Source: an uncultured Chloroflexia bacterium (GTDB lineage Bacteria > Chloroflexota > Limnocylindria > Limnocylindrales > CSP1-4). Taken from it: a stretch of DNA of 64,000 bases. Position 1 is the first letter of the stretch; the number at the start of each line of letters is the position of its first letter. This document shows, in pieces, positions 37,271 to 55,651 of the stretch. The notes beneath the pieces were generated by a model. It saw only the letters and a program-made list of their open reading frames with translations, did not search any database and was not told the DNA's origin. The stretch spans positions 480,001 to 544,000 of the forward strand of contig CAWHXD010000008.1 in the NCBI GenBank assembly GCA_963833225.1. Reading direction: 5' to 3'. Position numbers and translations under genes: made by a program.

Positions 37271-38329
37271 ATGATCGACGAGGAACCCTTTGGCGAGATC
37301 GCCGGGCGCCCGGCCCGGGCCTTCCGGCTCGACGGCGGGGGCGGGGTCGCGGCCCGCTTCACGGACTACGGCGCCCGCCTCACGGAGCTCCACGTCCCGG
37401 ATCGGGACGGCGTCACGGCCGACATCGTGCTGGGCTTCGACGACGCGGCGGCCTACGCCGCGTGGCCGGTGTACTTCGGGGCCACCGTGGGCCGATATGG
37501 CAACCGGATCCGGCGCGGGCGGTTCACCCTGCTCGGCCGGGACTACGAGGTCGACCACAACGAGGGCGAGCATCATCTCCACGGCGGCAGGCAGGGCTGG
37601 GACAGCCGGTTCTGGGACGCCCAGGTGGACGCGGGCGGCCGCTCGATCACCTTCCGGACCGCCAGCGCCGATGGGGAGATGGGCTTCCCGGGCGCCTGTG
37701 CGGTGCGCAGCACCTATGAGCTCACCGGGAGCACGCTGCGGATCACGATGGAGGCCGTGCCCGACGCCACCACCGTGATCAACATGGTCCACCACTCGTA
37801 CTTCAACCTGGCTGGGCACGCGTCGGGCACCGTGATGGCCCAGGAGATGCGGATCGCCGGCGACTTCTACACGCCGGTCGACCGCGACCTCCTGCCCACG
37901 GGCGAGATCCTCACGCTGGCCGGCACGCCGTTCGACTTCCTGGAGCGGCACCCCATCGGGCAACACCTCGAGGCGCTCGGGGCCGCGGCCGGCAACGCGG
38001 TCGAGGGAGGCACCGGATGGGACCACAACTGGTGCCTGCGAGGGCCCGGGAGCGATGGCCTCATCGAGGCGGCCGAGGTCCATGACCCGGCGTCAGGTCG
38101 CACGCTCCGGGTGCGCAGCACCGAGCCCGGCCTGCAGATGTACACCGGCGGCTACCTCGACGACCAGGTCGCCGGCAAGGGTGGGGCCCGCTACCGCCAG
38201 TACGGGGGCTTCACGCTGGAAACGCAGAAGTTCCCGGACTCGCCCCGGTTCGCCCACTTCCCGACGGCGACGGTGCGCGCCGGCGAGACCTATCGCCACG
38301 TGATGGTGCTGGACTTCTCCGCCGAGTAG
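37271..38329 (+). CDS. galM: Aldose 1-epimerase
   Basis: GRYGNRI, HLHGG, HSYFNL, DHNW, LETQKFPD. Confidence 0.92.
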   Translation: MIDEEPFGEIAGRPARAFRLDGGGGVAARFTDYGARLTELHVPDRDGVTADIVLGFDDAAAYAAWPVYFGATVGRYGNRIRRGRFTLLGRDYEVDHNEGEHHLHGGRQGWDSRFWDAQVDAGGRSITFRTASADGEMGFPGACAVRSTYELTGSTLRITMEAVPDATTVINMVHHSYFNLAGHASGTVMAQEMRIAGDFYTPVDRDLLPTGEILTLAGTPFDFLERHPIGQHLEALGAAAGNAVEGGTGWDHNWCLRGPGSDGLIEAAEVHDPASGRTLRVRSTEPGLQMYTGGYLDDQVAGKGGARYRQYGGFTLETQKFPDSPRFAHFPTATVRAGETYRHVMVLDFSAE

Positions 38330-38380: not shown

Positions 38381-38800
38381 CTACCCGACCGACGCGCCCA
38401 GCAGGGACAGGTCCGCCTCATCGCCGGAGAGCCCCCTCGTCACGTAGATCGCACGCAGGATGGCCGCCTCCGAGGCCGGATCGTTGGCCAGCTGCGACTC
38501 CTGGAGGCGGACCTGGTAGTCCAGCACCTCGCGCTGGCTTCGGACGCTGATGTACTCCCCAACCGCCATCGAGAACGCCCCCGCGAGCAGGCCCGCGATG
38601 CCGGCGATCAGCACGACGCCCGCGTCGTTGCCGGCGGCAGCCCCCACGCCCATCACGAGGGCGAGGTTGCTCACCAGGCCGTCCGACGCCCCGAAGACGA
38701 TCGGCCGCACGACCGTTGCGCCCGGCGTGTCATGCGGTCCGGAGGGCGTCACCAGCCGGGCGACGCGAGCGCGGGCGAAACGGAACGGTGACACGGGCAT
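38381..38800 (-). pseudogene. VIT1/CCC1 Fe/Mn transporter, truncated or internally deleted
   Basis: VFGASDGLVS, AGAFSMAVGEYISVRSQRE; 139 aa with the C-terminal TM bundle missing. Confidence 0.7.
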
Positions 38801-38816
38801 GCCGCCTGAGCTGCGG

Positions 38817-39296
38817 CTACTCCGAGATACCGTCGAGGTGCTTCTGGGCTTCGAACAGGTTCAACCCGCTGTCGATCAGGTCGAGCAGCGCCGCCATCGT
38901 GCGCTCCTCCTCGACCTGCTCCTCGATGAACCAGCCGAGGAACTGCAGGGTCCGGTTGTCCCCCGCCTCGCGGGCCGCGTTGGCCAGGGCCTCGAACTGG
39001 GCCGTGACCTTGCGCTCGCTCGCCTGGGCGACCTCGACGGCTGCCCGGGCCGAGCCGTAGGCGGTCGGCGCACCGCCCACCGGCGGGAGCGAGAACTCGA
39101 CCTCGTTGTCGATCAGGAAGCTGATGATCTTCGAGGCATGCTCGGCCTCCTCGGTCCCCTGGTCGTGGAAGAACTTGGCCCAGCCGCCCAGGCTCTCGCG
39201 GGCGAAGTAGAGGGAGATGCCCATGTAGGTCTGGTGGGCGGACAGCTCGCTTGCCACCTGGGCGACGAGGAGCTTGCGGGGGGCGTCGGCGATCAT
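38817..39296 (-). CDS. ftnA: Ferritin
   Basis: ELSAHQTY, EEAEH, ERKVT, FLGWFIEEQVEEE ferroxidase motifs; RBS GAGAGGA. Confidence 0.9.
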   Translation of the reverse strand: MIADAPRKLLVAQVASELSAHQTYMGISLYFARESLGGWAKFFHDQGTEEAEHASKIISFLIDNEVEFSLPPVGGAPTAYGSARAAVEVAQASERKVTAQFEALANAAREAGDNRTLQFLGWFIEEQVEEERTMAALLDLIDSGLNLFEAQKHLDGISE

Positions 39297-39348
39297 CGGT
39301 GTGGTTCCTCTCGGCATGTCGGATGCATGAATCGTACGCGGTGCCGTC

Positions 39349-39639
39349 TCAGACCTCGCGCATGGTGTGCCCGTCGGGCTTCCGGCCGTGGCGGGCGGCA
39401 AGCTCCGCGACAACGGCCTCTGCCACCGCCGCCGCGTCACCGGGCCGGTCCGTCCACTCGGACCACGCGAAGGCCTCGAGATAGTCGTCGGTCCCGGCCA
39501 GGCCCTCACGCATGGTGATCCGGCTCACCTCCTGCATGAACCACCTGGGCATGGGCTGGTTGAGCGTCGCGCCGGCATCGTCGGCAACCTGGAGCTGGGT
39601 GGGAATGTCGCGCCAGGCGAGGACGCGGTAGCGGGCCAT
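39349..39639 (-). CDS. Small 'virulence factor' family protein (WRDIP motif)
   Basis: WRDIPTQ...RWFMQEV...GTDDYLEAFAW. Confidence 0.7.
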   Translation of the reverse strand: MARYRVLAWRDIPTQLQVADDAGATLNQPMPRWFMQEVSRITMREGLAGTDDYLEAFAWSEWTDRPGDAAAVAEAVVAELAARHGRKPDGHTMREV

Positions 39640-39680
39640 CTGGGCCTCCTCGGCTCGGGATCGGTTCTTGCGCGCTCAGA

Positions 39681-40211
39681 TCAGGCCGGGTCGGGCGCCA
39701 GGACGGGGTGGTCAAGACGTCGGGCCAGGTCGTCCTTCTCCGCGTCCGTGAGGTTCCGGTCCAGCACGGCGAGGTACTGCTCCTCCTCGGCGAGATGCAT
39801 CTTCAGCAGAGCGTGGAGCCGGTACAGCGCACGGCGCAGCTCCAGGCCCTCCATCTCGTTCCAGGTGCAGTGGTCCGCGTGGACCCGGTAGGTGCCCAGC
39901 TCCGCGATCAGCGACCGGACGATCTGGTGCTCCTCGCGCATCGGGGCCATGGTGTGGCGCGGGCCCATGATCGCTTCCAGCCGGTCGTACAGGACAGCCT
40001 CAACCGCGTCCTGGTGCGGCAGGTACTGGCCCGCGACGAACCCGTACTCCTCGTTGTACAGCGCGTGCAGCGCCTTGCACTCGACGCGACCCACCATCTC
40101 GGCGAGCGTGAGCAACCGGTCCACGTGCGGCATGAGCAGCGCGTGGTGGGCCTCGCTGGTGGCGCGCAGCGAGAGCAGGCCGGAGCCGGGGTGTGGGCGG
40201 GTGTCGGTCAC
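39681..40211 (-). CDS. Hemerythrin-like (HHE) domain protein
   Basis: HH, HQDAVE, MREEH, HLAEEE; TAGGAT 6 nt before GTG. Confidence 0.8.
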   Translation of the reverse strand: MTDTRPHPGSGLLSLRATSEAHHALLMPHVDRLLTLAEMVGRVECKALHALYNEEYGFVAGQYLPHQDAVEAVLYDRLEAIMGPRHTMAPMREEHQIVRSLIAELGTYRVHADHCTWNEMEGLELRRALYRLHALLKMHLAEEEQYLAVLDRNLTDAEKDDLARRLDHPVLAPDPA

Positions 40212-40227
40212 CCCGGCATCCTAGCCC

Positions 40228-40719
40228 CTATGCCCCGGCGACGGGGTGCGCAAGGGCAGCCGTGACCGCCTCGGCGACGTCCTCGGACACGCCGTGCTCC
40301 ACGATCCGCAGGTAGGCTTCCTCTTCCGCGATGTGCACTTTGAGCAGCGCGTACAGCTGGAACAGCACCCGCCGCAGGGCGAGCGTGCGCCCGAGCGTGA
40401 CCGTGCCAGCGTCCTTGTCGACGAGCGCTCCGAACTCCGCGACCAGGTCACGGATCCGTGCATGCTCGCGACGCATGGGCGCCATCGAGTGCCGGTTCTG
40501 GAACATCCGCTCCAGCTCCGGGTACAGCGCCCGCTCCGCGGCCTCCATGTGGGTCAGGAGCGTGCCGGCAAGGAACCCGCGCAGGTCCGCGATGCCCGCG
40601 AGGGCGCCGTCGGGCTTGGCAACCAGGAAGGCGTCCGCCATGTCCGGGATGCGGTTGACGCGCTCGAGCAACACCTCGTGGTGCGCGTGGGCGGCCTGGG
40701 GGAGAGTCTGCGAGGTCAT
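40228..40719 (-). CDS. Hemerythrin-like (HHE) domain protein
   Basis: HHE, HMEAAERALYP, MRREH, HIAEEE; ATGA overlap with the qmoC-like stop. Confidence 0.85.
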   Translation of the reverse strand: MTSQTLPQAAHAHHEVLLERVNRIPDMADAFLVAKPDGALAGIADLRGFLAGTLLTHMEAAERALYPELERMFQNRHSMAPMRREHARIRDLVAEFGALVDKDAGTVTLGRTLALRRVLFQLYALLKVHIAEEEAYLRIVEHGVSEDVAEAVTAALAHPVAGA

Positions 40720-41946
40720 GCCTTGGCTCCTTCCTTGGGCTGGCGCGACAGGGCGACGAAGAACAGGGCCACGGGCCGGTACACGGCGTGGGCGAGCTTC
40801 ATGAACGGCGCCAGGAGCACGAGCTCCATCGCGACCGCGACATGGACCAGGAACATCCAGTAGCCCCAGACCGGAGCGCCGGGGAGATACAGCGCAAGCT
40901 CGATGGCGAAGCCGGTCACGGCAGTCACCCAGAGCAGCGCAAGCAGCAGCCAGTCCGCGGTCGTCGAGCTCCGGACGCTGCGGCTCGCGGCTCGATAGCG
41001 GTCGATGATCAGGACGGTGGCGCCGTACACCAGCGACGCGCCGGCGACCGTGCCCAGCAGGCGCACGGGGTACCAGATCGGCACCGGGGTCCCGGTCTCC
41101 TTGATCCCGACCAGGGCCAGGCCGTAGTCGAGGCCGGTGGCCGCGAGCAGTCCCAGGAAGCCCCACACGACCAGCGCATGGACCAGCCAGCGGCGGCGGT
41201 ACCAGGGCACGGCGGCCGCGACGGCGTCGGCCTCGCACTCATCCCGGAAGCGGACCTGGGCGAGCGACTCCCGCGCGATCGAGGACCACAGCGCGCGTCC
41301 GGTGCGGACGAGCGCCGCCCGGGAGCCCAGCACGGATCGTGGGCTCTCGCCCTCCCGGCGGGCGATGCCGCGGGCCATGGACGCGATCCCGACGAGGCCC
41401 GGCGAGGACGACGATGACCATCAGCCCGATGCCCAGGTTGTGGATGAGCTCGGACGGGATCCATTCGAAGATCGCGAGCGTGGTCTGGTCCATCGGGCCA
41501 CGCGCCGAGAGCATGAACGCGGCGAAGAACACCGCGAGCAGCACGGCGACCACGGTCGCAAGGACGGGCCGGGTGTACATCGTGGCGGCCAGCCGGGTGC
41601 GGTCATAGCTGGCGATCGCATAGCGGCGGGTCGCCGCCATGAACTCGGACGGGTCGGCCTGCGTGGGACAGGTGTCGGCGCACTCGCCGCACTGGTAGCA
41701 CGCCCAGAGCTCCTTGGAGCTCAGGAGCGCGTCCTTCATGCCCAGCTGCGCGTAGCGGATGATCCGCCTCGGGAACGTGCCGTCGGTCTGGGCCATCGGG
41801 CAGGTCGCCGAGCAGGTCCCGCACGAGAAGCAGGCGCTGATGTCGGTGGCGCCGTAGCGCTGGATCTCCGGGTACAGCCCCAGGTCCAGGCGGACGGCGG
41901 TGGAGGCGGCCGGCGTGGTGCCGGCGGGAATGGTGGTCGCGGTCAT
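40716..41946 (-). CDS. QmoC-like subunit: HdrC-type 2x[4Fe-4S] domain plus cytochrome b membrane domain (frameshift near 41399)
   Basis: CFSCGTCSATCP, FPRRIIRYAQLG, CYQCGECADTCP; TM His in ELIHN, LVHAL, LVHVA, KLAHAVYRP. Confidence 0.85.
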
Positions 41947-42191
41947 CAGTGGTCCCGCCCGGTGGGCTCATAGAGGAAGTAGCCGTCAGCGTCGGAGCCC
42001 TTGATCTCCGCCAGCCATCCGTAGCGGCGCATGCCCATGACCCAGAACACGGTCTCGTGCGTCGGGGCATGGATCGCGTCGGCGATCTGGGGCACGGTGA
42101 GCGGGCCATCGGCGAGCGCGGCGAGGATTCTCGGGCGCATGACGGGCTCCTCGCGGATCACCTCGCGCGGGTCCCGGTTGGCGACAGGCAT
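41946..42191 (-). CDS. Small winged-helix protein within the Hdr/Qmo-like operon
   Basis: ILAALADGPLTVPQIADAI...MRRYGWL; start and stop overlap both neighbours. Confidence 0.75.
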   Translation of the reverse strand: MPVANRDPREVIREEPVMRPRILAALADGPLTVPQIADAIHAPTHETVFWVMGMRRYGWLAEIKGSDADGYFLYEPTGRDH

Positions 42192-44056
42192 CAGACGGGC
42201 ACCTCCACGAGGGCTTCGATCATCGAGGTGATCTCGAGGTCGGTGTAGCCGAGCAGGTCGATCGCGTTCTCGGGGCAGATCGGCACGCAGCCGCCACAGC
42301 CCTTGCAGCCGGTGGGGCTGATGACCGCAAAGTGCCGGTCACCCTCCTCGGCCATGGAGATCGCGTCGTAGGGACAGGCCGTGAGGCAGTCGCCGCAGGC
42401 CGTGCAGGCCTCTGGGGCCACGATGGCGACCAGCGGGTCGAGCTCGGTGAACCCCTTCTTGAGGACCGCCGCGCTCTGGGTCACGGCGGCGAGGCCGGAC
42501 ATGACCGATTCGGCGGACGTCTTGGGCCCCTGGCAGGTGCCGGCGATGAGCACGCCGTCCACCACGGTCTCGACCGGGCGCAGCTTGGGGTGGATCTCGT
42601 TGAAGAACCCGTCACTGCCCGCGGGGAGCTTGAGGATGTCCACCAGGCCCTGGTTCTCACGCGGGACCATGCCCGTGACCAGGACCACCAGGTCCACCGG
42701 AAGCGCAAGCTCCGTCCGCTCGGTGAGCAGGTCACGCACCGTGACGGTCAGCGTCCCGTCGGGCCCGGTGGCGACCGCGGGGGGCTCGTCGTTGTCGAAC
42801 TTGAGGAAGACCGATCCCCGGTCACGGGCCTCGGTGTAGAGCGGCTCGAACTTGCCGTACGTCCGCATGTCCCGGTAGAGGTGGTACTGGCGGATCGACG
42901 GGTCCAGGCCGGAGACCTGCACGGCCGTCTGCACGGTTGCCGTGCAGCAGAACCGGGAGCAGTACTCGTTCGCGCAGCCGGCCGTGCTGCGGCTGCCCAC
43001 GCAGTACACGTAGGCGACGCCGCGGACGGGCCGGCCATGCCAGCTGAGCGGGTTCCCGCTGGCTCCGTCGACCAGCGCCTTGAACTCGGATAGCGTCACC
43101 ACACCGTCGATGCCGTAACCGAGCTCGCCCTCGTCGGGCCGGTACTCGTCGAAGCCGGTGGCGACCACGATCGATCCGACCGCCACCTCGATGGTGCCCG
43201 AGCCCTCGCCGCCGATCCGGACGGTGACCCGGTAGTTGCCAAAGCTGCCGGCCTTGCCGACCAGCTCCGCGCCCGTGAGCACCGTGATCGCCGGCCGGCG
43301 TCGAACCTCGGCGACGAGGCCGTCGATCAGCTCGCTGCCCTTGCGATCGTGGGGGAACATCGAGCCGAAGCCACGGACCCAGCCGCCGAGCTCGAGCTCG
43401 CGCTCGACCAGGGTCACCTGGAGGCCGATGTCCGCGAGGCCGACGGCCGCGCGGAGCCCGGCGATACCGCCGCCGATGACCAGCGTGTGCGGGATGGTCT
43501 CGACGACCATCGGCTCGAGCGGGACGGTGTTCCGGGTGCGCCCGATGCCGGCCCTGACGAGGGCCGTGGCCTTGGCCGTGGCGCCCTCCGGGTCGTCGGT
43601 GTGGACCCACGAGCACTGCTCGCGGATGTTGACCTGGGTGTACTCGTAGGGGTTGAGGCCGGCGCGGGACGCCACGCCCCGGAACGTGTAGGTATGCAGC
43701 TTGGGCGAGCAGGACGCGACGACCAGGCCGTCAAGTCCGTTCGTCTCGATGTCGGCGGCGATGTCCTGCTGGGTGGCGTCGGAGCAGGCGAACATCGCGG
43801 TCCGCGAGACGACGACGTCGCCGTCGTCCCGGATGCCGTCGATGACCTTCTCCACGTCGACGTAGTCGCTGATGTTGCCGCCGCAGTGGCAGACATAGAC
43901 GCCGATCCTCCGGCCCGTCTGGACGCCCACGCCTTCGTTGTCGCCTGCGCGCGGTCGCTCACGCACGCCGGAAGTGCGCTCGCTCGCGTGCTCGGCTCCG
44001 CCTTGGCCTGGACGCCCGGCCGGGCCGACGAGGTCGATCCCCTGCTGCTCGCTCAT
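42191..44056 (-). CDS. hdrA: HdrA/QmoB-like flavoprotein with C-terminal ferredoxin domain (no fused MvhD)
   Basis: VYVCHCGGNI, CSP, NIREQCSWVH, GGGIAG, CVGSR..CSRFCC, HPKLRPVET, two CxxCxxCxxxC. Confidence 0.9.
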   Translation of the reverse strand: MSEQQGIDLVGPAGRPGQGGAEHASERTSGVRERPRAGDNEGVGVQTGRRIGVYVCHCGGNISDYVDVEKVIDGIRDDGDVVVSRTAMFACSDATQQDIAADIETNGLDGLVVASCSPKLHTYTFRGVASRAGLNPYEYTQVNIREQCSWVHTDDPEGATAKATALVRAGIGRTRNTVPLEPMVVETIPHTLVIGGGIAGLRAAVGLADIGLQVTLVERELELGGWVRGFGSMFPHDRKGSELIDGLVAEVRRRPAITVLTGAELVGKAGSFGNYRVTVRIGGEGSGTIEVAVGSIVVATGFDEYRPDEGELGYGIDGVVTLSEFKALVDGASGNPLSWHGRPVRGVAYVYCVGSRSTAGCANEYCSRFCCTATVQTAVQVSGLDPSIRQYHLYRDMRTYGKFEPLYTEARDRGSVFLKFDNDEPPAVATGPDGTLTVTVRDLLTERTELALPVDLVVLVTGMVPRENQGLVDILKLPAGSDGFFNEIHPKLRPVETVVDGVLIAGTCQGPKTSAESVMSGLAAVTQSAAVLKKGFTELDPLVAIVAPEACTACGDCLTACPYDAISMAEEGDRHFAVISPTGCKGCGGCVPICPENAIDLLGYTDLEITSMIEALVEVPV

Positions 44057-46830
44057 GCCGGCACCAGCTCGATCTGGGGCAGGGGTTTCGAGCGTTCGAG
44101 ATGGGCGGCCACCTGGGCGACGGCGGCGCCGGCGTGCAGGATGGAGTCCGCGATGTCCTTGGCGCCCGAGGCGGCTCCCGCCACGTAGACGCCCGGGATG
44201 CTGGTCTGGCCCGGGTTCACGTCCTCCTCCGGCTCCGCCACCCACTGCCACTCGTCGAGCGCGAGCTCGCCGACGTTGAACAGCCGTTCGGCGTCCCTGT
44301 TTGGCTGGACGCCCACCGCGAGGACGACCAGGTCGTACTCGGCCTTGGTGATGGCGCCACCGTTCTCGATGTCCTCGTAGGTGAGGATCAGGTTCCCCTC
44401 GGGGGTCTCGGTGACATCGGCGACACGGCCCTTCACGTAGCTGGCACCCATCGCCTTCGCCTGCTCGTAGAACTCGTCATAGCGCTTGCCCGGCGCCCGG
44501 ATGTCCATGTAGTGGACGGTGACGTCGGCCAGCGGCAGCGCGCCCATCAGCAGCTGGTTCTGCTTGATGGAGTACATGCAGCAGAACCGCGAGCACAGGG
44601 GGTTGCCCACCGTCTGGTCACGTGAGCCGGTGCACAGGATGTAGGCGATCCGCTCGGGGACCTTGCCGTCGCCCGGGCGCAGGATCGTGTTGAACGGCCG
44701 GGTGGGCGCCAGGAGGCGGTCCATCTGCATGCCGGTGATCACGTTCTTGTAGAGGCCGTAGCCGTACTCCGGCTTGAGGTCGGCCGGGAACAGCTTGAAG
44801 CCGGTCGAGACGACGACCGCTCCAACCCGGACCTCGAGCTCCTCGTCGTGGGCGCGCAGGTCGATGCATCCATCGACGGGGCATGCGCTGACGCACTCGC
44901 CGCACTCGGAGCAGGTGGCGCAGTCGAGGCACCGGCCGGCGGCCCGGCGGGCCTCCGCCTCGGTGAGCGGGGCCTCGACCTCCCGGAAGTCGGCCGGGGC
45001 CGGCTGGAGGTCCATGCCATTGGGGGTCTCGGCAGCGATCGCGTAGGCCTTCTGGCGAGCCAGGACGGCCTCCTTGTCCACCACCGGGAGGCGGGTGTCC
45101 CAGTCGTCGAATGCCCGTCCCGACAGCCATGCGTCGATCTGGTGGGCGGCCTTCCGGCCCTCCCCCACCGCTCGCGTGATGTCGGTCGGCCCGTTGACCG
45201 CGTCGCCCGCGGCAAACACGTGCTCGACGGCGGTCTGGCAGGTTGCCGTGTCGCTCGCGAGTCGCCCGTTGGGCAGCACCGCAACCCGGTCGCCGAAGGC
45301 GGCCGTGTCGGGCTTCATGCCGATGGCGGCGATGACCAGGTCGGCCTCGAGGGTCACCGAGGAACCCGGGATGGGCTCGACGGACTTGCGACCGGAGGCG
45401 TCCGGCGCACCCAGGCGCATCGCGGTGCACCGCAGGCCGGCGACCGCGCCGTCGGCGTTGCCCACGATCTCGGCCGGGGCGACGAGGAGGCGGAACCCGA
45501 CCCCCTCCTTCTCCGCGTCGGCCGACTCCACGTGGTGGGCGGGCATCTCGTCGCGAGAGCGACGGTAGGCCACCGTCACGCTGGCGGCGCCGAGGCGGCG
45601 GGAAACGCGCGCTGCGTCCATGGCGACGTTGCCGCCACCCACCACGACGACCTTCTTGCCGGTCAGGCCCTCGTGCTGGCCGAGATTGACCTTGCGCAGG
45701 AAGGCGGCGGCGCCGACCACGCCCAGGCGATCCTCGCCCGGAACGCCCAGGTCGCTGTCGCGGTGGGTGCCGGTGGCGACCAGCACCGCGTCAAAGCCGT
45801 CGCCCTTGAGCGAGGACGGGTCGCTGACCGCGGTGTTGACGGCGATCTCGACGCCCAGCCCGGTGACGTTCTCGATGTCACGCTCGACGACCGCGTCGGG
45901 CAACCGGTAGCTCGGGATCCCCAGGCGGAGGAACCCGCCGGCGACCGGCGCCGCCTCGAACACCTTGACGCCGTAGCCCAGCCTGGCGAGCTGGAAGGCG
46001 GCGGTCAGGCCGGTAGGCCCGGAGCCCACGATCGCGACGCGCCGGCCGTTGGGCTCGGGGCGCTCCATGCCGTTGTCGCTGCCCGATGCGTCATGCGCAT
46101 CCGAGGCGTAGCGCTTGAGCCTCCGGATCGGGAGCGTTCCCTCGAGGCTGCCGCGGGTGCACTCGCCCTCGCACGGGGCGTAGCAGGCGCGGCCGAGGGT
46201 GCCCACGAGCGGGGTTGCGTCCAGCACCAGCCGGTACGCCTCCTCGTCGAGGCCGCTCCGGATGAGGCTGACGTACCCATGGGCAGAGATGCCGGCCGGG
46301 CAGGCGAACGAGCAGGGCGAGGTCCCCTGGCGGTCGATGACCGCCTTCTTGGGCACGGCCTGCGGGAAGGCGATGTGCGCCGCTCGTCGGGCGACCAGGT
46401 CGGCGTTGAACTGGTCGGGCACCGCGACCGTGCACGCGGTCTCGCACTTCTGGCAGCCGGTGCAGGCGTCGATGTCGACGAACCGCGCCTTGCGCGTCAC
46501 CTTGGCCGTGAACGTGCCGTCGGCCGCGGACCGCACCTGGTCGACGCGGCTGTACGTGTAGGGCGTGATGTTGTCGTGGTGGATCGTCGACGCCATCTTG
46601 GGCGTCGAGATGCAGGACGCGCAGTCGAGGGTCGGGAAGACCTTCGAGAGCAGGATCATCTTGCCGCCGACGGAGGCTTCCTTCTCGACGAGCAGGACCT
46701 TGTAGCCCATGTCCCCGAGCTTGAGGGCGGACTCCATGCCGCCGATGCCGGCTCCGATCACGAGGACGTCGTAGTCGAGCGCGGCCGGGGCCTCGTCGCG
46801 GGTGGCGCAGGTATCGGTCATGTCGGTCAC
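44053..46830 (-). CDS. hdrA: HdrA/QmoA-like flavoprotein with inserted GltD/NfnB-like NAD(P)H module (HdrL-type architecture)
   Basis: GAGIGG, FPTLDCASC, CTGCQKCETAC; insert CSFACPAG, GRACYAPCEGEC, GSGPTG, GGGNVAMDAAR, YRRS; then RCLDC, CTGSRD, CSRFCC. Confidence 0.9.
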   Translation of the reverse strand: MTDMTDTCATRDEAPAALDYDVLVIGAGIGGMESALKLGDMGYKVLLVEKEASVGGKMILLSKVFPTLDCASCISTPKMASTIHHDNITPYTYSRVDQVRSAADGTFTAKVTRKARFVDIDACTGCQKCETACTVAVPDQFNADLVARRAAHIAFPQAVPKKAVIDRQGTSPCSFACPAGISAHGYVSLIRSGLDEEAYRLVLDATPLVGTLGRACYAPCEGECTRGSLEGTLPIRRLKRYASDAHDASGSDNGMERPEPNGRRVAIVGSGPTGLTAAFQLARLGYGVKVFEAAPVAGGFLRLGIPSYRLPDAVVERDIENVTGLGVEIAVNTAVSDPSSLKGDGFDAVLVATGTHRDSDLGVPGEDRLGVVGAAAFLRKVNLGQHEGLTGKKVVVVGGGNVAMDAARVSRRLGAASVTVAYRRSRDEMPAHHVESADAEKEGVGFRLLVAPAEIVGNADGAVAGLRCTAMRLGAPDASGRKSVEPIPGSSVTLEADLVIAAIGMKPDTAAFGDRVAVLPNGRLASDTATCQTAVEHVFAAGDAVNGPTDITRAVGEGRKAAHQIDAWLSGRAFDDWDTRLPVVDKEAVLARQKAYAIAAETPNGMDLQPAPADFREVEAPLTEAEARRAAGRCLDCATCSECGECVSACPVDGCIDLRAHDEELEVRVGAVVVSTGFKLFPADLKPEYGYGLYKNVITGMQMDRLLAPTRPFNTILRPGDGKVPERIAYILCTGSRDQTVGNPLCSRFCCMYSIKQNQLLMGALPLADVTVHYMDIRAPGKRYDEFYEQAKAMGASYVKGRVADVTETPEGNLILTYEDIENGGAITKAEYDLVVLAVGVQPNRDAERLFNVGELALDEWQWVAEPEEDVNPGQTSIPGVYVAGAASGAKDIADSILHAGAAVAQVAAHLERSKPLPQIELVPA

Positions 46831-47279
46831 CCCGCGGTCTTCACGGGACCGAGCGCGACCAGGGCGGTCGTGAACGTCACCATGTGCTTCGTGAATGGCT
46901 CGGAGCAGACCGAGCAGATGGCCGCCATGCGCAGGCGGTTGCCATCGATGCCTCGCTCCTTGAGCCCCTTCTGGGCGTCGGCCATGATCTTGCTCGAGCG
47001 CTTCGCGCAGTCGTGCAGATAGGCGCACTCGTCGCCATCGGAGGCCACGAACACGCCGTCAAAGCCGGAGTCGAACGCGTGCAGGATCCACGACGGCCGA
47101 ATGCCGCTGGTGCACGGGAGGCCGATCACGTTGACCCCGGGCGAGTAGTGCATGTGGGCACTGCCGGCGAGGTCGATACCGGGATCGCTGATGTTGTTGG
47201 TGGAGAACACGAGGATCCGGGGGACGAAGGTGTCTCCGGGAGCGTTCGGCTCCGTTGCGACGGGTGCGGTCATCGACAC
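46827..47279 (-). CDS. mvhD: MvhD/FlpD-like iron-sulfur subunit with atypical cysteine pattern
   Basis: PRILVF, GIDLAG, LPCTSGIRP, AFDSGFDGVFV, ECAY, GIDGNRLRM, CSVC. Confidence 0.8.
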   Translation of the reverse strand: MSMTAPVATEPNAPGDTFVPRILVFSTNNISDPGIDLAGSAHMHYSPGVNVIGLPCTSGIRPSWILHAFDSGFDGVFVASDGDECAYLHDCAKRSSKIMADAQKGLKERGIDGNRLRMAAICSVCSEPFTKHMVTFTTALVALGPVKTAG

Positions 47280-47355
47280 ATGGCTCCTGCGCAGGAGGGT
47301 GTCGCCGCGACGCTCCCCGAGGAGGCTCGTCGCGGCGACATGAGGAAAGTGGCGC

Positions 47356-47616
47356 CTACTTGCCGCGCGTGACGAAGACGCGGTCGTAGCCGTCCGCCTC
47401 CAGCACGCCCATGAAGTCGTGGCCCACCTTGCCGGACCAGGCGCTGATGTCGTTCTTGGTGGCGGGGTCGGTGGACCAGATCTCGATCACGGAGCCGACC
47501 GGGACCTTGACCATGCTCTTCTTGGCCTCGAGGAGCGGGCCCGGGCAGGCGGATCCGCGGGCGTCGACGACGGCGGCGGCGGTGATGGTCTGGAGCTCGG
47601 CGACGGTGGTGGTCAT
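47356..47616 (-). CDS. tusA: TusA-family sulfur carrier
   Basis: VDARGSACPGP, STDP, DISAW. Confidence 0.9.
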   Translation of the reverse strand: MTTTVAELQTITAAAVVDARGSACPGPLLEAKKSMVKVPVGSVIEIWSTDPATKNDISAWSGKVGHDFMGVLEADGYDRVFVTRGK

Positions 47617-47631
47617 GGCAGTTCGGTTCTC

Positions 47632-48000
47632 CTAGTAGGCGAGCGAGTTGGTGGCGGAGGTGATCTCGACGACGAAGCGGGCGGCCGCGACGACCTCCGC
47701 GCCCTCGACGAGCTCGTCGGGGGCGATGCCCCGGCTCTTGATGCAGGGGTTGCAGACGAGCAGCGCGGCGCCCAGCTCTCGCACGTCGGCGAGCAGCTTG
47801 GCGAGGGGCGGGAAGCCATCGGCGGAGACGGTCTCGGCCACGCCTTTCTTCATCAGCTCAACGCCGTCGGCCTGGAAGCCCAGGCTGACGGCCACGTCGG
47901 ACGCCAGGGCGGCGGCGGCCATCACGAACGGGATGGTGGCGTGCTCGGGATGGTCCGCCCCGTGGGTGACCATGAACACGAGCTTCTCTTGATCGGCCAT
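47632..48000 (-). CDS. DsrE-family protein
   Basis: THGADHPEHATIPFVMA, DGVELM, LLVCNPCIKSRGI. Confidence 0.85.
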   Translation of the reverse strand: MADQEKLVFMVTHGADHPEHATIPFVMAAAALASDVAVSLGFQADGVELMKKGVAETVSADGFPPLAKLLADVRELGAALLVCNPCIKSRGIAPDELVEGAEVVAAARFVVEITSATNSLAY

Positions 48001-48031
48001 CGGCGGCTCCTTGTGCCTCGCGCCCGGCGGG

Positions 48032-48443
48032 CTAGATGAAGACGATCTGGCCGTCGTCGGCGGCCAGGAGGAAGGTGGCGATGCCGCCCGAGGCGTCCAC
48101 GAGGGGGTCGAGGGCGGTGACATCGATGCCCAGCGTGTCGAGCGACCCGGAGCACGCGAGGATCGAGAGCGATCCCGAGCTCCTTGGCCATCCGGAAGGT
48201 GTCCAGCCACGGGATCGCCTTGGTGCCGTTGACCGGGCGGCTGGCACCGTCTGCCGTCGAATCCCAGGCCAGGCCGTGGCTTTCCTCGAGGCGCTCCATG
48301 CGGAACGCGTCGAGCGCCCAGTACTGGAGCAGGATGTTGACCGGCCGGTCCATCGCCGCGGCGCCGGCCGCGAGCGTGGCGGCGGCGTGCAGCTTGTCGG
48401 CCGTACCGGAGAACAGGACGATGTTGAGAGGCGCGTCGCTCAT
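48032..48443 (-). CDS. DsrE2/DrsH-like protein (frameshift near 48175)
   Basis: IVLFSGTADK, YWAL, AKELG / ILACSGS, GGIATFL...IVFI; RBS AGGTGA. Confidence 0.8.
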
Positions 48444-48812
48444 CGGGTGGTCACCTGTGTGGCTGAATGGGTGGGGCGTGAGTCCGTCCTCGGCCGCGGC
48501 GAGGGTGCCCAGCGCGGACAGGCGCCGGACGATCACGCTCCGCATGAGGTCGCAGGCGGCGAGGATCTCGGGGTCGGCGAGGCGGTAGCGGACCGTTCGT
48601 CCGTCGCGAGTGGCGTCCACCAGGCCGGCGGATCGCATGGCGGCAAGGTTCTGGGAGACCGTGGCCTGCGGGAGATCCAGCGCGAGCGCCAGCTCCCGCA
48701 CCTCCATCGGGTGCTCACCCAGGAGGTGCACGATCCGCAGCCGGTGCGTCCCGGCGAGCGCCCGGATGAGTCCGATCTGGATCAGATCGATCTCGGTGAC
48801 GGGGTCGAACAC
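48440..48812 (-). CDS. ArsR/SmtB-family regulator heading the operon
   Basis: ALAGTHRLRIVHLL, VSQNLAAMRSAGLV, RDGRTVRYRL, one Cys in ILAACD; stop inferred, since as assembled it reads into dsrE. Confidence 0.85.
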
Positions 48813-48847
48813 ATGACTCCTTGCCGTACGGCTCAGTAACTGTCATG

Positions 48848-48874
48848 CATATCTATATGTTCTTGACATATATA
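48848..48874 (-). promoter_or_regulatory. AT-rich inverted repeat, putative ArsR operator/promoter
   Basis: TATATGT-N5-ACATATA (48854-48872), about 40 bp upstream of arsR in a GC-rich context. Confidence 0.6.
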
Positions 48875-48969
48875 AGGTGCGGGCCGTCCGTCATGATCGG
48901 ATGGGTCAAGGGGCCCGGGCCAATTCCGGTGAGTCCCAGGCCCGTCGCGGGCACCGGGTGCGAGCTGTG

Positions 48970-49486
48970 TCAGCCGTCGAACGCAAACCAGCACAGCTCG
49001 TTGCGCCGCCGCTGGTCGTCGAGCACGAGATCCCGGATCTCGCGGGGGAGCTGGGCGCGCTGCCACTGGCACTCCAGGCGGCCGGCCGCCTCGCGCGTCG
49101 TCGTCGGGCGCTGCCGCTCGCGCCGCCCGGATCGCGTAGGCCGCGGCACCGAGCTCGTGGGCCGCCACATGGCCCACCGCCGCGGCCTGGCCGGCGGCGT
49201 ACGCGGCATGCCGTGCCGCCCCGCGCAGGTCCCTGGCCGCGGCGTTGGCATGGCCGGCCGCCGTGCGGGCCTCTCGCCACGGGATCTCACCCCGCGCCCA
49301 GGCACGCCCGAGGTCGATCGCCCGACGCGGACGGTCGTCGTTCGGCCGTGCCCGCTCGAAGTGGTGCAGCACGTGCTCCGCGCAGTCGGCCGCCCAGATC
49401 GCGAGCAGACGATGATCGTCGTCCTGGAGGCTCCCGCCGCGACGCACGGTGATGAACCGCGGATCCCGGATCTTGGGGAGGATCAC
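48970..49486 (-). CDS. Imm-5-like putative immunity protein (frameshift near 49095)
   Basis: WAADCAEHVL, DDRPRRAI, AAYAAGQAAAVGHVAAHELGAAAYA, ECQWQRAQLP. Confidence 0.75.
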
Positions 49487-54979: not shown

Positions 54980-55164
54980 ATTCGCCCCGCCGGTCGCGTT
55001 CGCGCGACGCAGGCAACCGGTACGTTCGGCGCGCCACCCCATACGACGGTCCCGTGGCGCGCCGACGCAACACGTCGGACGATTCCCCAAGTTCCAATCT
55101 CCGGCGCGCGGCCCATGACGGGGGTCCCAGGACCGCGCACCAGCAGCAATCGGAGGACCGACGC

Positions 55165-55651
55165 GTGGACACCACCGGCATTCCTGAGCCGGCCGGCTGG
55201 GAGGACCCGCTCACCGGACTGCAGGGCCCCGACTTCTGGCGACGGTCACTCGTCACCGAGGTCGCCCGCAGCGCCCGGTACCGCCGCTCCCTCGCCGTCG
55301 TGATCGTCGAGGTCAGCGGCATCGAGGCGCTGGGTGAGCACGTGGGGCTGGGATGTCGCCCGACATGCGATCCACGAGGCTGCGCAGTGCCTGCGGCGGA
55401 CCTCACGGACCAGCGATCATTGCTCCCGCATCGGCCCGGCCCGCTTTGGCGTGGCGTTGACCGAGACGGACGAGATCGCGGCCATCAACTTCGTGGAGCG
55501 TGTCCGCGAGGCCGGTCCGCGTGCCATGCCCAAGGACTTCGACAGTCTCCGGTTCAGCTTTGGCTGGGCCAGCCCCAAGCAGGGCGAGTCCGCCGACGCC
55601 GTGGTTCGCCGCGCCGAGTCACGGCTGGCCCTGGAGCTCGCCGAGGCCTGA
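55165..55651 (+). CDS. Stand-alone degenerate GGDEF-domain protein (frameshift near 55339)
   Basis: RBS GGAGG; DPLTGL, EVARSARY, RTSD, GPARF in place of GGDEF, SFG. Confidence 0.75.

Follow-up and report, generated by a model that had tools for sequence, protein, structure and literature searches.

We describe a gene cluster from an uncultured bacterium of the Chloroflexota (class Limnocylindria) that joins sulfur-carrier genes of the TusA and DsrE families to genes for an electron-transfer complex of the Hdr/Qmo type. It lies in the analyzed stretch of 64,000 nucleotides (positions 480,001 to 544,000 of contig CAWHXD010000008.1), hereafter the window. The cluster is a real operon that is conserved in its Limnocylindria-type Chloroflexota genus. 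From the domains that it encodes and from its gene neighborhood in other lineages, we propose that it may specify an NADPH- and quinone-linked membrane complex acting on carrier-bound sulfane sulfur and switched by an ArsR-type regulator, a reading whose chances we consider evenly balanced. The individual parts of the operon are known, and their combination of sulfur carriers with a Qmo/HdrL-type complex is a variant for which no published description was found.

The window lies within contig C8 of the host genome (3.89 Mb, 20 contigs, 70% G+C, 86% complete), and near homologues of the encoded proteins bear the labels 'Candidatus Limnocylindrales' or Chloroflexota. The operon consists of twelve tightly packed genes on the minus strand, at positions 39684-48812 of the window. 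Its features, listed from the upstream end, are the following:

48854-48872, no strand: palindrome TATATG-N7-CATATA, candidate ArsR operator/promoter region in an AT-rich island upstream of arsR
48446-48812, minus strand: arsR, regulator of the ArsR/SmtB family (HTH_5, 3.1e-10; NF033788, 72 bits against a cut-off of 55)
48035-48443, minus strand: dsrE2-like sulfur-carrier gene (PF13686), split near 48173
47635-48000, minus strand: dsrE, DsrE family with a C-x-P-C motif (PF02635, 1.5e-15)
47359-47616, minus strand: tusA, sulfur carrier with a CPGP active-site motif (PF01206, 1.3e-18)
46830-47279, minus strand: mvhD, MvhD/FlpD-like [2Fe-2S] protein (PF02662, 9.4e-27)
44056-46821, minus strand: hdrA1, 922 amino acids, N-terminal half of HdrL type (HdrA core plus GltD/NfnB-type module)
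42194-44056, minus strand: hdrA2, 621 amino acids (HdrA N-terminal iron-sulfur and FAD domains, C-terminal 2x[4Fe-4S] ferredoxin domains)
41949-42191, minus strand: gene for a winged helix-turn-helix (wHTH) protein of 81 amino acids, predicted bridging subunit (no family match; predicted winged helix)
40719-41946, minus strand: gene for a QmoC-like subunit, split near 41396 (NF038018, 108.4 and 91.4 bits on two fragments)
40231-40719, minus strand: hem1, hemerythrin (HHE) protein 1 (PF01814, 1.1e-14)
39684-40211, minus strand: hem2, hemerythrin (HHE) protein 2 (PF01814, 1.1e-4, 23.1 bits, below the cut-off of 25.3)

Two of the gene junctions (hdrA1/hdrA2 and qmoC/hem1) are ATGA stop/start overlaps and two others (hdrA2/wHTH and wHTH/qmoC) are overlaps of 1 nt, and the translational coupling at these four junctions supports the operon as a real unit. 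Upstream of hdrA1, the mvhD stop codon is located 5 nt ahead of the hdrA1 ATG. An earlier note on this DNA, made from the sequence alone, had proposed the same gene list, order and strand, all of which were borne out, and had pointed to many stop/start overlaps. The genes that it read in this run are thus there, although it overlooked the breaks in arsR, dsrE2 and qmoC of the assembled copy, to which we return below. The QmoC-like subunit combines an HdrC-like 2x[4Fe-4S] domain with a NarI/HdrE-like membrane domain, and hem2 is a paralogue of hem1 (38% identical). Against PF13686, the broken DsrE2 of the window reaches 23.4 bits and the intact copy of the closest relative (locus L014) 35.7 bits, with a cut-off of 25.

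The earlier note had also described one of the two HdrA proteins as carrying an NAD(P)H insert, and such a module was found in HdrA1, which places this protein in the already named HdrL type. The HdrA halves of HdrA1 (residues 1-130 and 613-909) enclose a complete GltD/NfnB-type NADPH-FAD-2x[4Fe-4S] module (residues ~165-650), which takes the place of the inserted ferredoxin of HdrA. Among structures in the PDB, the region of residues ~165-645 matches NADPH-binding chains of Stn/Nfn-Bfu-type enzymes (StnC/NfnA-type) and NfnB/GltD, residues 633-910 match HdrA chains, and the top matches of HdrA2 are the HdrA subunits of methanogen Hdr complexes (8rvu, 5odc). The relatives that match HdrA1 over its whole length in a protein library clustered at 50% include many proteins of 1470-1530 amino acids, while others have ~900-920 or ~1110-1140 amino acids, the last group carrying an N-terminal extension. 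By their domain composition, HdrA1 and HdrA2 appear to correspond to the halves of a single HdrL-type protein.

Of 24 genomes of the genus, 16-18 encode an HdrA1 relative of full or nearly full length, in comparison with none of 16 genomes of the sister family (~1.1 Mb), which yielded only partial, GltD-like matches. The gene order ArsR-DsrE2-(DsrE)-TusA-MvhD-HdrA1-HdrA2-wHTH-QmoC-Hem is preserved in 14 of the 15 genus loci, the exception being a divergent paralogue (L023). TusA, MvhD, HdrA2, the wHTH protein and the N-terminal domain of QmoC are each encoded in all 15 loci, ArsR in 13 (of the other two, one contig ends first and the L023 paralogue has no ArsR), and DsrE in eight. The hem1 gene follows qmoC in the genus loci, and the position of hem2 varies, often on the opposite strand beyond a padR gene. 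One genome (G019) holds two full copies of the operon on separate contigs (L019 and L020). The paralogous L023 cluster of genome G001 is 60% identical and reads DsrE-TusA-MvhD-HdrA1-HdrA2-wHTH-HdrC-like-hemerythrin; the membrane part of QmoC, ArsR and DsrE2 are not detectable in it.

The linkage of sulfur carriers to this type of HdrA extends far beyond the genus. For a wider survey, we used a profile of nine HdrA1 relatives of 900-920 amino acids, with one genome per species, and analyzed the best 80 of at least 598 matching stretches; the loci were scanned, on six-frame open reading frames (ORFs), with hidden Markov models (HMMs) built iteratively from the operon proteins. The tusA gene stands directly upstream of mvhD-hdrA1 in 13 of these 80 HdrL-type loci (L050-L058, L060, L062, L087 and L127), which bear the labels Chloroflexia, Actinomycetota, Gaiellales, Ignavibacteriales, Bacteroidales, Aminicenantes, Zixibacteria, Deferrimicrobium and Acidobacteriota. 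L059 begins at hdrA1 and offers no upstream side to score for tusA. In the remaining 67 loci, mvhD is downstream or absent and tusA is not adjacent (in L082 it lies 6 kb off). A maximum likelihood tree was built from 75 HdrA1-type rows, excluding the broken or partial loci L056, L058, L059, L087, L088, L105, L120, L122, L126 and L128. The TusA-linked rows number 15, with a single genus contributing five, and all of them occupy one side of a single branch (SH-like approximate likelihood ratio test, SH-aLRT, 100; length 0.5), so that one label change accounts for the distribution. The loci labeled Desulfobacteraceae, from metagenome-assembled genomes, fall outside this branch. The Actinomycetota rows are nested among Chloroflexota rows, which suggests lateral transfer of the TusA-linked operon. 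The cluster had previously been called an orphan, and this description has to be given up in favor of a recurrent operon family with several phylum-level labels, whereas the conserved linkage of tusA and dsrE to the hdrA genes, which the same note had named as a point to check, holds in several lineages and coincides with a single branch of the HdrA1 tree.

The end module of the operon family is not constant. Nine of the 13 TusA-linked loci reach beyond hdrA2, and the wHTH gene is next in all of them; a complete QmoC follows in five, and in four a short HdrC-like gene is followed by a protein of 322-381 amino acids with a CCG (HdrB-like) domain, which was confirmed in each of the four loci that have no QmoC membrane part. 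TusA and a DsrE-family gene are kept in both versions. The family therefore alternates between a quinone-linked QmoC and an HdrB-type end module, in the same way as QmoABC alternates with QmoAB-HdrCB. By domain assignment, the same core thus also occurs with a catalytic subunit of the thiol/disulfide type. Hemerythrins were observed only in Chloroflexota-labeled loci (the genus and L050) among the loci compared.

These distributions bear on a different explanation, in which the complex would be a general electron hub, a NADPH:menaquinone and/or ferredoxin oxidoreductase, possibly bifurcating, that has no sulfur substrate, and in which TusA and DsrE would be neighbors for other reasons, such as sulfur supply for iron-sulfur clusters or regulatory input. 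The 67 HdrL-type loci with no adjacent tusA speak for it, as they indicate other contexts in which the HdrL-MvhD core is at work; so do the QmoC version, in which neither a CCG domain nor another known sulfur-reactive site is found, and the resemblance of the GltD-like insert to the NADPH modules of Stn/Nfn-Bfu transhydrogenases. We nevertheless regard such a hub as unlikely. The linkage to TusA tracks one long, well-supported HdrA1 branch over several phylum labels and holds with either end module, QmoC or HdrCB. Two or three distinct carrier genes are kept, catalytic cysteines included, and an ArsR-type regulator is present in most loci of the genus and in several distant ones.

Conservation of the carriers at the residue level is high. 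The D-A-R-x-x-x-C-P-G-P motif of TusA does not vary among the 23 aligned copies, the C.PC motif of DsrE is kept in 11 of 12, and the cysteines of MvhD are conserved among 22 aligned copies. The palindrome TATATG-N7-CATATA upstream of arsR, which is also found upstream of arsR in the genus loci inspected for it, is the sole match in the 3.89-Mb genome at no more than one mismatch and did not appear in five shuffles of contig C8. Its sequence and position make it a good candidate for the ArsR operator. Since the palindrome is unique in the genome, the regulator is suggested to control only this operon. A wider regulon was sought through the motif and rejected, as no other genomic site exists; a second cluster with TusA on contig C19, described below, is not co-regulated through it. 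A scan of 39200-49200 for promoters and terminators was uninformative, with no promoter-like sites and two terminator-like sites against 1.5 expected. An ORF similar to Imm5 (48836-49486; PF21805, 1.4e-34) terminates within the AT-rich DNA around the operator and is not a conserved neighbor. Its annotated tail is probably non-coding, because in relatives only the last ~30 codons, which correspond to the operator DNA, match.

The protein of 81 amino acids encoded between hdrA2 and qmoC has no match in Pfam or NCBIfam and contains no cysteine; its W-x-M-x-M-x-R-Y-G motif is invariant. An AlphaFold2 model from 14 sequences predicts a plain winged helix (predicted local distance difference test, pLDDT, of 88), in agreement with the small wHTH protein of the earlier note, and a fold search returned generic winged helices of the MarR/ArsR type with weak scores (best E-value 7.8e-4). 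A DsrD-like role was considered and dropped, as this search gave no DsrD entry. The gene comes next after hdrA2 in all 15 genus loci, as it does in each of the nine other TusA-linked loci long enough to show it. Because its place between hdrA2 and the HdrC-like gene is fixed in different phyla, we modeled its product as a possible subunit. The predicted complex of HdrA2, the iron-sulfur domain of QmoC and the wHTH protein scored 0.63, compared with 0.03 for the best of three controls; among 80 solved complexes, 58 attain this mark, as do 2 among 110 mismatched pairs, a calibration that applies only approximately because the alignments for the present model were supplied by us. The runs agreed in at least 76% of contacts, with a partner pLDDT of at least 82. 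In the modeled interface, residues 48-58 of the wHTH protein, which hold the invariant motif, meet invariant residues ~351-374 of HdrA2 (trimmed chain) and the cysteine-motif loops of QmoC. The model supports a putative role of the wHTH protein as a structural bridge between HdrA2 and the iron-sulfur domain of QmoC.

The rest of the host genome was searched for partners known from other systems. In this genome, 86% complete, the best match to AprA has 21.4 bits against a cut-off of 641.75 and DsrA was not found; Sat was not searched for. The window contains no CCG (HdrB-type) domain, and all seven genomic matches to it lie elsewhere, in two EtfAB-linked membrane iron-sulfur proteins of ~700 amino acids, a GlpC-like gene and one further locus. 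The two large paralogues (L047:2865-4985 on contig C17 and L048:2122-4224 on C14) have two CCG domains each and adjoin EtfB/EtfA-like genes, a call made from ORF sequences with no family search. A single GCV_H match (GcvH/LbpA-type; C8:398575-398928) is located far from the operon. Four [NiFe]-hydrogenase loci are found in the genome, on contigs other than that of the operon, and their neighbors are NuoF/G-like or HydBG-like. The absences that the earlier note had listed for the window, namely those of HdrB-type CCG domains, AprAB, DsrAB and hydrogenase, were thus upheld for the CCG domain and hydrogenase, and no match to AprA or DsrA appeared in the genome as a whole.

Because the genome encodes two haem-copper oxidases and members of the sulfite-oxidase family, the host probably respires oxygen. 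It also encodes a second carrier cluster, ArsR-DsrE2-TusA-DsrE2-TusA-SQR/FCSD-like (L046:10374-13521, equal to C19:688873-692020), with DsrE2 proteins of 150 and 182 amino acids and an SQR/FCSD-like flavoprotein of 413 amino acids; the first of the two DsrE2 proteins shares 48% identity with the intact operon DsrE2 (the L014 copy). To judge from its gene content, this cluster could supply carrier-bound sulfane sulfur. Its ArsR has a cysteine in the helix-2 region that is absent from the operon ArsR. About 5 kb upstream of the cluster are a [NiFe] hydrogenase large subunit, a protein of 688 amino acids with Fer4_22, NAD_binding_1 and DHODB-FeS domains, and a cNMP-binding protein.

The C19 cluster and the oxidases invite an oxidative interpretation similar to sHdr, in which sulfane sulfur derived from SQR would pass through TusA and DsrE and the electrons would flow to menaquinone and NADP+, so that sulfide or polysulfide would provide reducing power to an aerobe. 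Its supporting evidence consists of the SQR/FCSD-like gene within the TusA/DsrE2 cluster, the terminal oxidase and sulfite-oxidase-family genes of the genome, and the fact that TusA and DsrE feed sHdr in sulfur oxidizers (PMC11094781). The operon locus, on the other hand, has no catalytic subunits of the HdrB1/B2 type, the whole genome has one gene of the GcvH/LbpA type, and the conversion of sulfane sulfur to sulfite requires a site that is not visible in the complex. On this balance, the oxidative direction appears quite unlikely.

We compared the operon with the systems that it most resembles. The likeness to canonical QmoABC resides in two HdrA-like FAD subunits, an MvhD-type module and a membrane subunit of HdrC/HdrE type. 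Canonical QmoB carries the MvhD module at its C-terminus, whereas MvhD in the operon is encoded by a separate upstream gene; moreover, an NADPH module is built into one of the operon HdrA proteins, a wHTH gene is present in addition, and sulfur-carrier genes stand in place of aprAB. The intact QmoC of the closest relative (409 amino acids) matches NF038018 over model positions 2-360 of 360 with 211.7 bits, below the cut-off of 300 for canonical qmoC. A canonical Qmo was ruled out by this score together with the failure to find aprA anywhere in the 86%-complete genome, the latter being a check that the earlier note had proposed. The canonical 'type I' QmoABC is known from sulfate reducers and green sulfur bacteria. 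'Type II' Qmo-like proteins with no Apr or Dsr have been described in Ammonifex degensii and 'Ca. Vulcanisaeta moutnovskia' (PMC10504309) and are nearer to ordinary HdrA than to bacterial QmoAB; the accessible text of that paper mentions neither a TusA/DsrE linkage nor an NADPH insert. In archaea, type II dsrEFH genes adjoin qmoAB (PMC13293266).

Fusions of HdrA and GltD type were described in 2009 as HdrL, invariably adjoining mvhD (PMC2702500), and noted again in a sulfur disproportionator (PMC12142623). The operon shares with HdrL-MvhD the GltD-type NAD(P)H module of HdrA1 and the adjacent mvhD gene. It differs in that the protein is split into 922 and 621 amino acids, while many relatives are single proteins of ~1470-1530 amino acids, and in that mvhD lies upstream rather than downstream as in the loci with no TusA; the TusA-linked proteins also form a branch of their own, to which QmoC or HdrCB and the sulfur carriers are attached. 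With sHdr-LbpA, in which TusA and DsrE3 accompany the complex and TusA/DsrE deliver sulfur to it in sulfur oxidizers (PMC11094781), the operon has in common that genes for TusA and for sulfur transferases of the DsrE family accompany the gene for an HdrA-type flavoprotein. In contrast, it also encodes another HdrA, the NADPH module, MvhD and an anchor linked to quinone, HdrB1B2 and HdrC1C2 are missing from the locus, and a single GcvH/LbpA-type gene was detected in the 86%-complete genome; sHdr was ruled out at the locus, given that no CCG subunits are present, and MvhAGD-HdrABC was ruled out as well, with neither hydrogenase nor HdrBC at the locus. QmoAB-HdrCB of Gram-positive sulfate reducers (PMC10504309) parallels the operon family in the exchange of the QmoC membrane subunit for soluble HdrC and HdrB, but its known partner is AprAB and the constant partners in the operon family are TusA and DsrE. 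The earlier conclusion that the cluster matches neither Qmo-AprAB nor sHdr holds, as aprA and dsrA were not found, HdrB is absent from the locus and only one GcvH-type gene exists. Likewise, a match to an already characterized system did not emerge: no publication describing a TusA-MvhD-HdrL-HdrA-wHTH-QmoC operon was found in the literature, supplementary files being beyond the search.

As assembled, the window operon carries three uncompensated 1-bp insertions relative to the locus of the closest relative, genome G008 (HdrA1 92% identical), at ~48490, ~48173 and ~41396; the remaining gaps against this relative are compensating pairs. The first insertion shifts the 3' tail of arsR, and the ArsR frame runs into dsrE2 with no stop codon. 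At locus L014 the ArsR stop overlaps the dsrE2 start, and DsrE2 and QmoC have 136 and 409 amino acids. One could conclude that the operon is decaying in this genome, the insertions being real mutations and the copy non-functional: the three lie within 9.2 kb and are all private to the window in the comparison with the closest relative, and the same genes are single-frame in 14 of 14 (dsrE2) and 12 of 14 (qmoC) genus loci that have them. Such decay is very unlikely, however. The broken genes otherwise retain 90-98% protein identity to the relative, the restored frames contain no stop codons, and qmoC is also split in two further genus assemblies (L018 and L024). Across 39 kb aligned with the relative there are ~30 uncompensated indels, and they break genes in either assembly, a pattern that fits indel-prone assembly. 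A sulfite-oxidase-family gene (Oxidored_molyb) at C19:66766-67207 matches its model in two pieces in different open frames, likely another single-base assembly error. Because indels break genes in both assemblies and also this C19 gene, the three operon frameshifts are very probably assembly errors, and the operon copy is probably intact in the cell. In window coordinates, ORFs of 220, 1137 and 595 amino acids that are open in G008 are broken or shortened here (at 55013-55341, 36334 and 65668-66372), and the reverse case, with the G008 relative being the broken one, is found near 37542 and 75450-75818.

Taking the domains together, the proposed complex would consist of MvhD, a heterodimer of HdrA1 and HdrA2, the wHTH protein and the QmoC-like membrane anchor. 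NADPH would enter at the GltD-like module of HdrA1, and electrons would be exchanged among NADP(H), both HdrA flavins together with the iron-sulfur chain, and menaquinone, the last reached through the haem-type membrane domain of QmoC. TusA, DsrE and DsrE2 would bring or take away the sulfur substrate, and the physiological redox substrate would be carrier-bound sulfane sulfur, that is, persulfide or polysulfide. With low confidence, we favor the reductive direction, in which NADPH and/or quinol would supply the electrons that turn carrier persulfide or polysulfide into sulfide; this preference comes from the NADPH entry site, the disulfide-reducing subunit of HdrB type in the sister versions and the fact that no site for the addition of oxygen atoms is visible. 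An ArsR-type repressor would switch the operon at the TATATG-N7-CATATA operator. The two co-transcribed hemerythrins would have been added in an aerobic lineage and, as a speculation, may serve an oxygen-sensitive enzyme as sensors of, or buffers against, O2 or oxidants. The possibly bifurcating coupling of NADPH, quinone and persulfide put forward in the earlier note fits the domain content. Directly downstream of the hemerythrins (window 38384-39639) are a 'Virulence_fact' protein (PF13769, 96 amino acids), a ferritin and a VIT1 iron-transporter ORF, the last matching only model positions 1-100 of 214 and perhaps truncated by an indel.

Several points weigh against a sulfur-handling complex under ArsR control. 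No recognized sulfur-reactive site is found in any subunit of the QmoC version, which has no CCG domain, and a three-way coupling would have no clear thermodynamic rationale, as NADPH can reduce persulfide with no quinone involved. Persulfide sensors such as SqrR and BigR use a pair of cysteines, the first located in helix 2 and the second close to the C-terminus; the operon ArsR has a single conserved cysteine (an A-C motif near residue 87), reaches 36.8 bits against the BigR model (cut-off 155) and thus lacks the SqrR/BigR-type pair. The copy in the window is broken in three genes as assembled, the second hemerythrin and the DsrE2 fragment of the window score below the Pfam cut-offs, and absences from a genome that is 86% complete are no proof. 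In addition, TusA or DsrE genes of divergent sequence could have escaped the home-made HMMs in the other loci.

Complexes of the Hdr/Qmo type have a central part in the way methanogens and sulfate reducers conserve energy, and TusA and DsrE form an established cytoplasmic sulfur relay. An operon that joins the two, and that has no APS (adenosine 5'-phosphosulfate) reductase, DsrAB or, in the present case, HdrB, points to a putative enzyme of sulfane sulfur. The operon is found in uncultured bacteria that are abundant in soil and freshwater and that have genes for aerobic respiration as well. The unique candidate operator, the invariant carrier cysteines, the predicted role of the wHTH protein and the natural pair of QmoC and HdrCB versions provide handles for experiments. 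In a broader and doubtful form of the proposal, the TusA-linked branch would represent a third functional class of Hdr/Qmo complexes, beside the heterodisulfide reductases and the Qmo complexes that serve APS reductase. Members of this class would act on sulfane sulfur held by carriers, with bifurcation or confurcation among NADPH, menaquinone (or the HdrB site) and persulfide; the wHTH protein would clamp the HdrC-like domain to HdrA, and in aerobic soil Chloroflexota the hemerythrins would guard against oxygen. If this were true, the branch would constitute an unrecognized and widespread route of sulfur and electrons in soils and sediments. If the substrate is indeed carrier-bound persulfide, surveys of sulfur metabolism based only on dsr, apr, sox and shdr genes would miss a common module.

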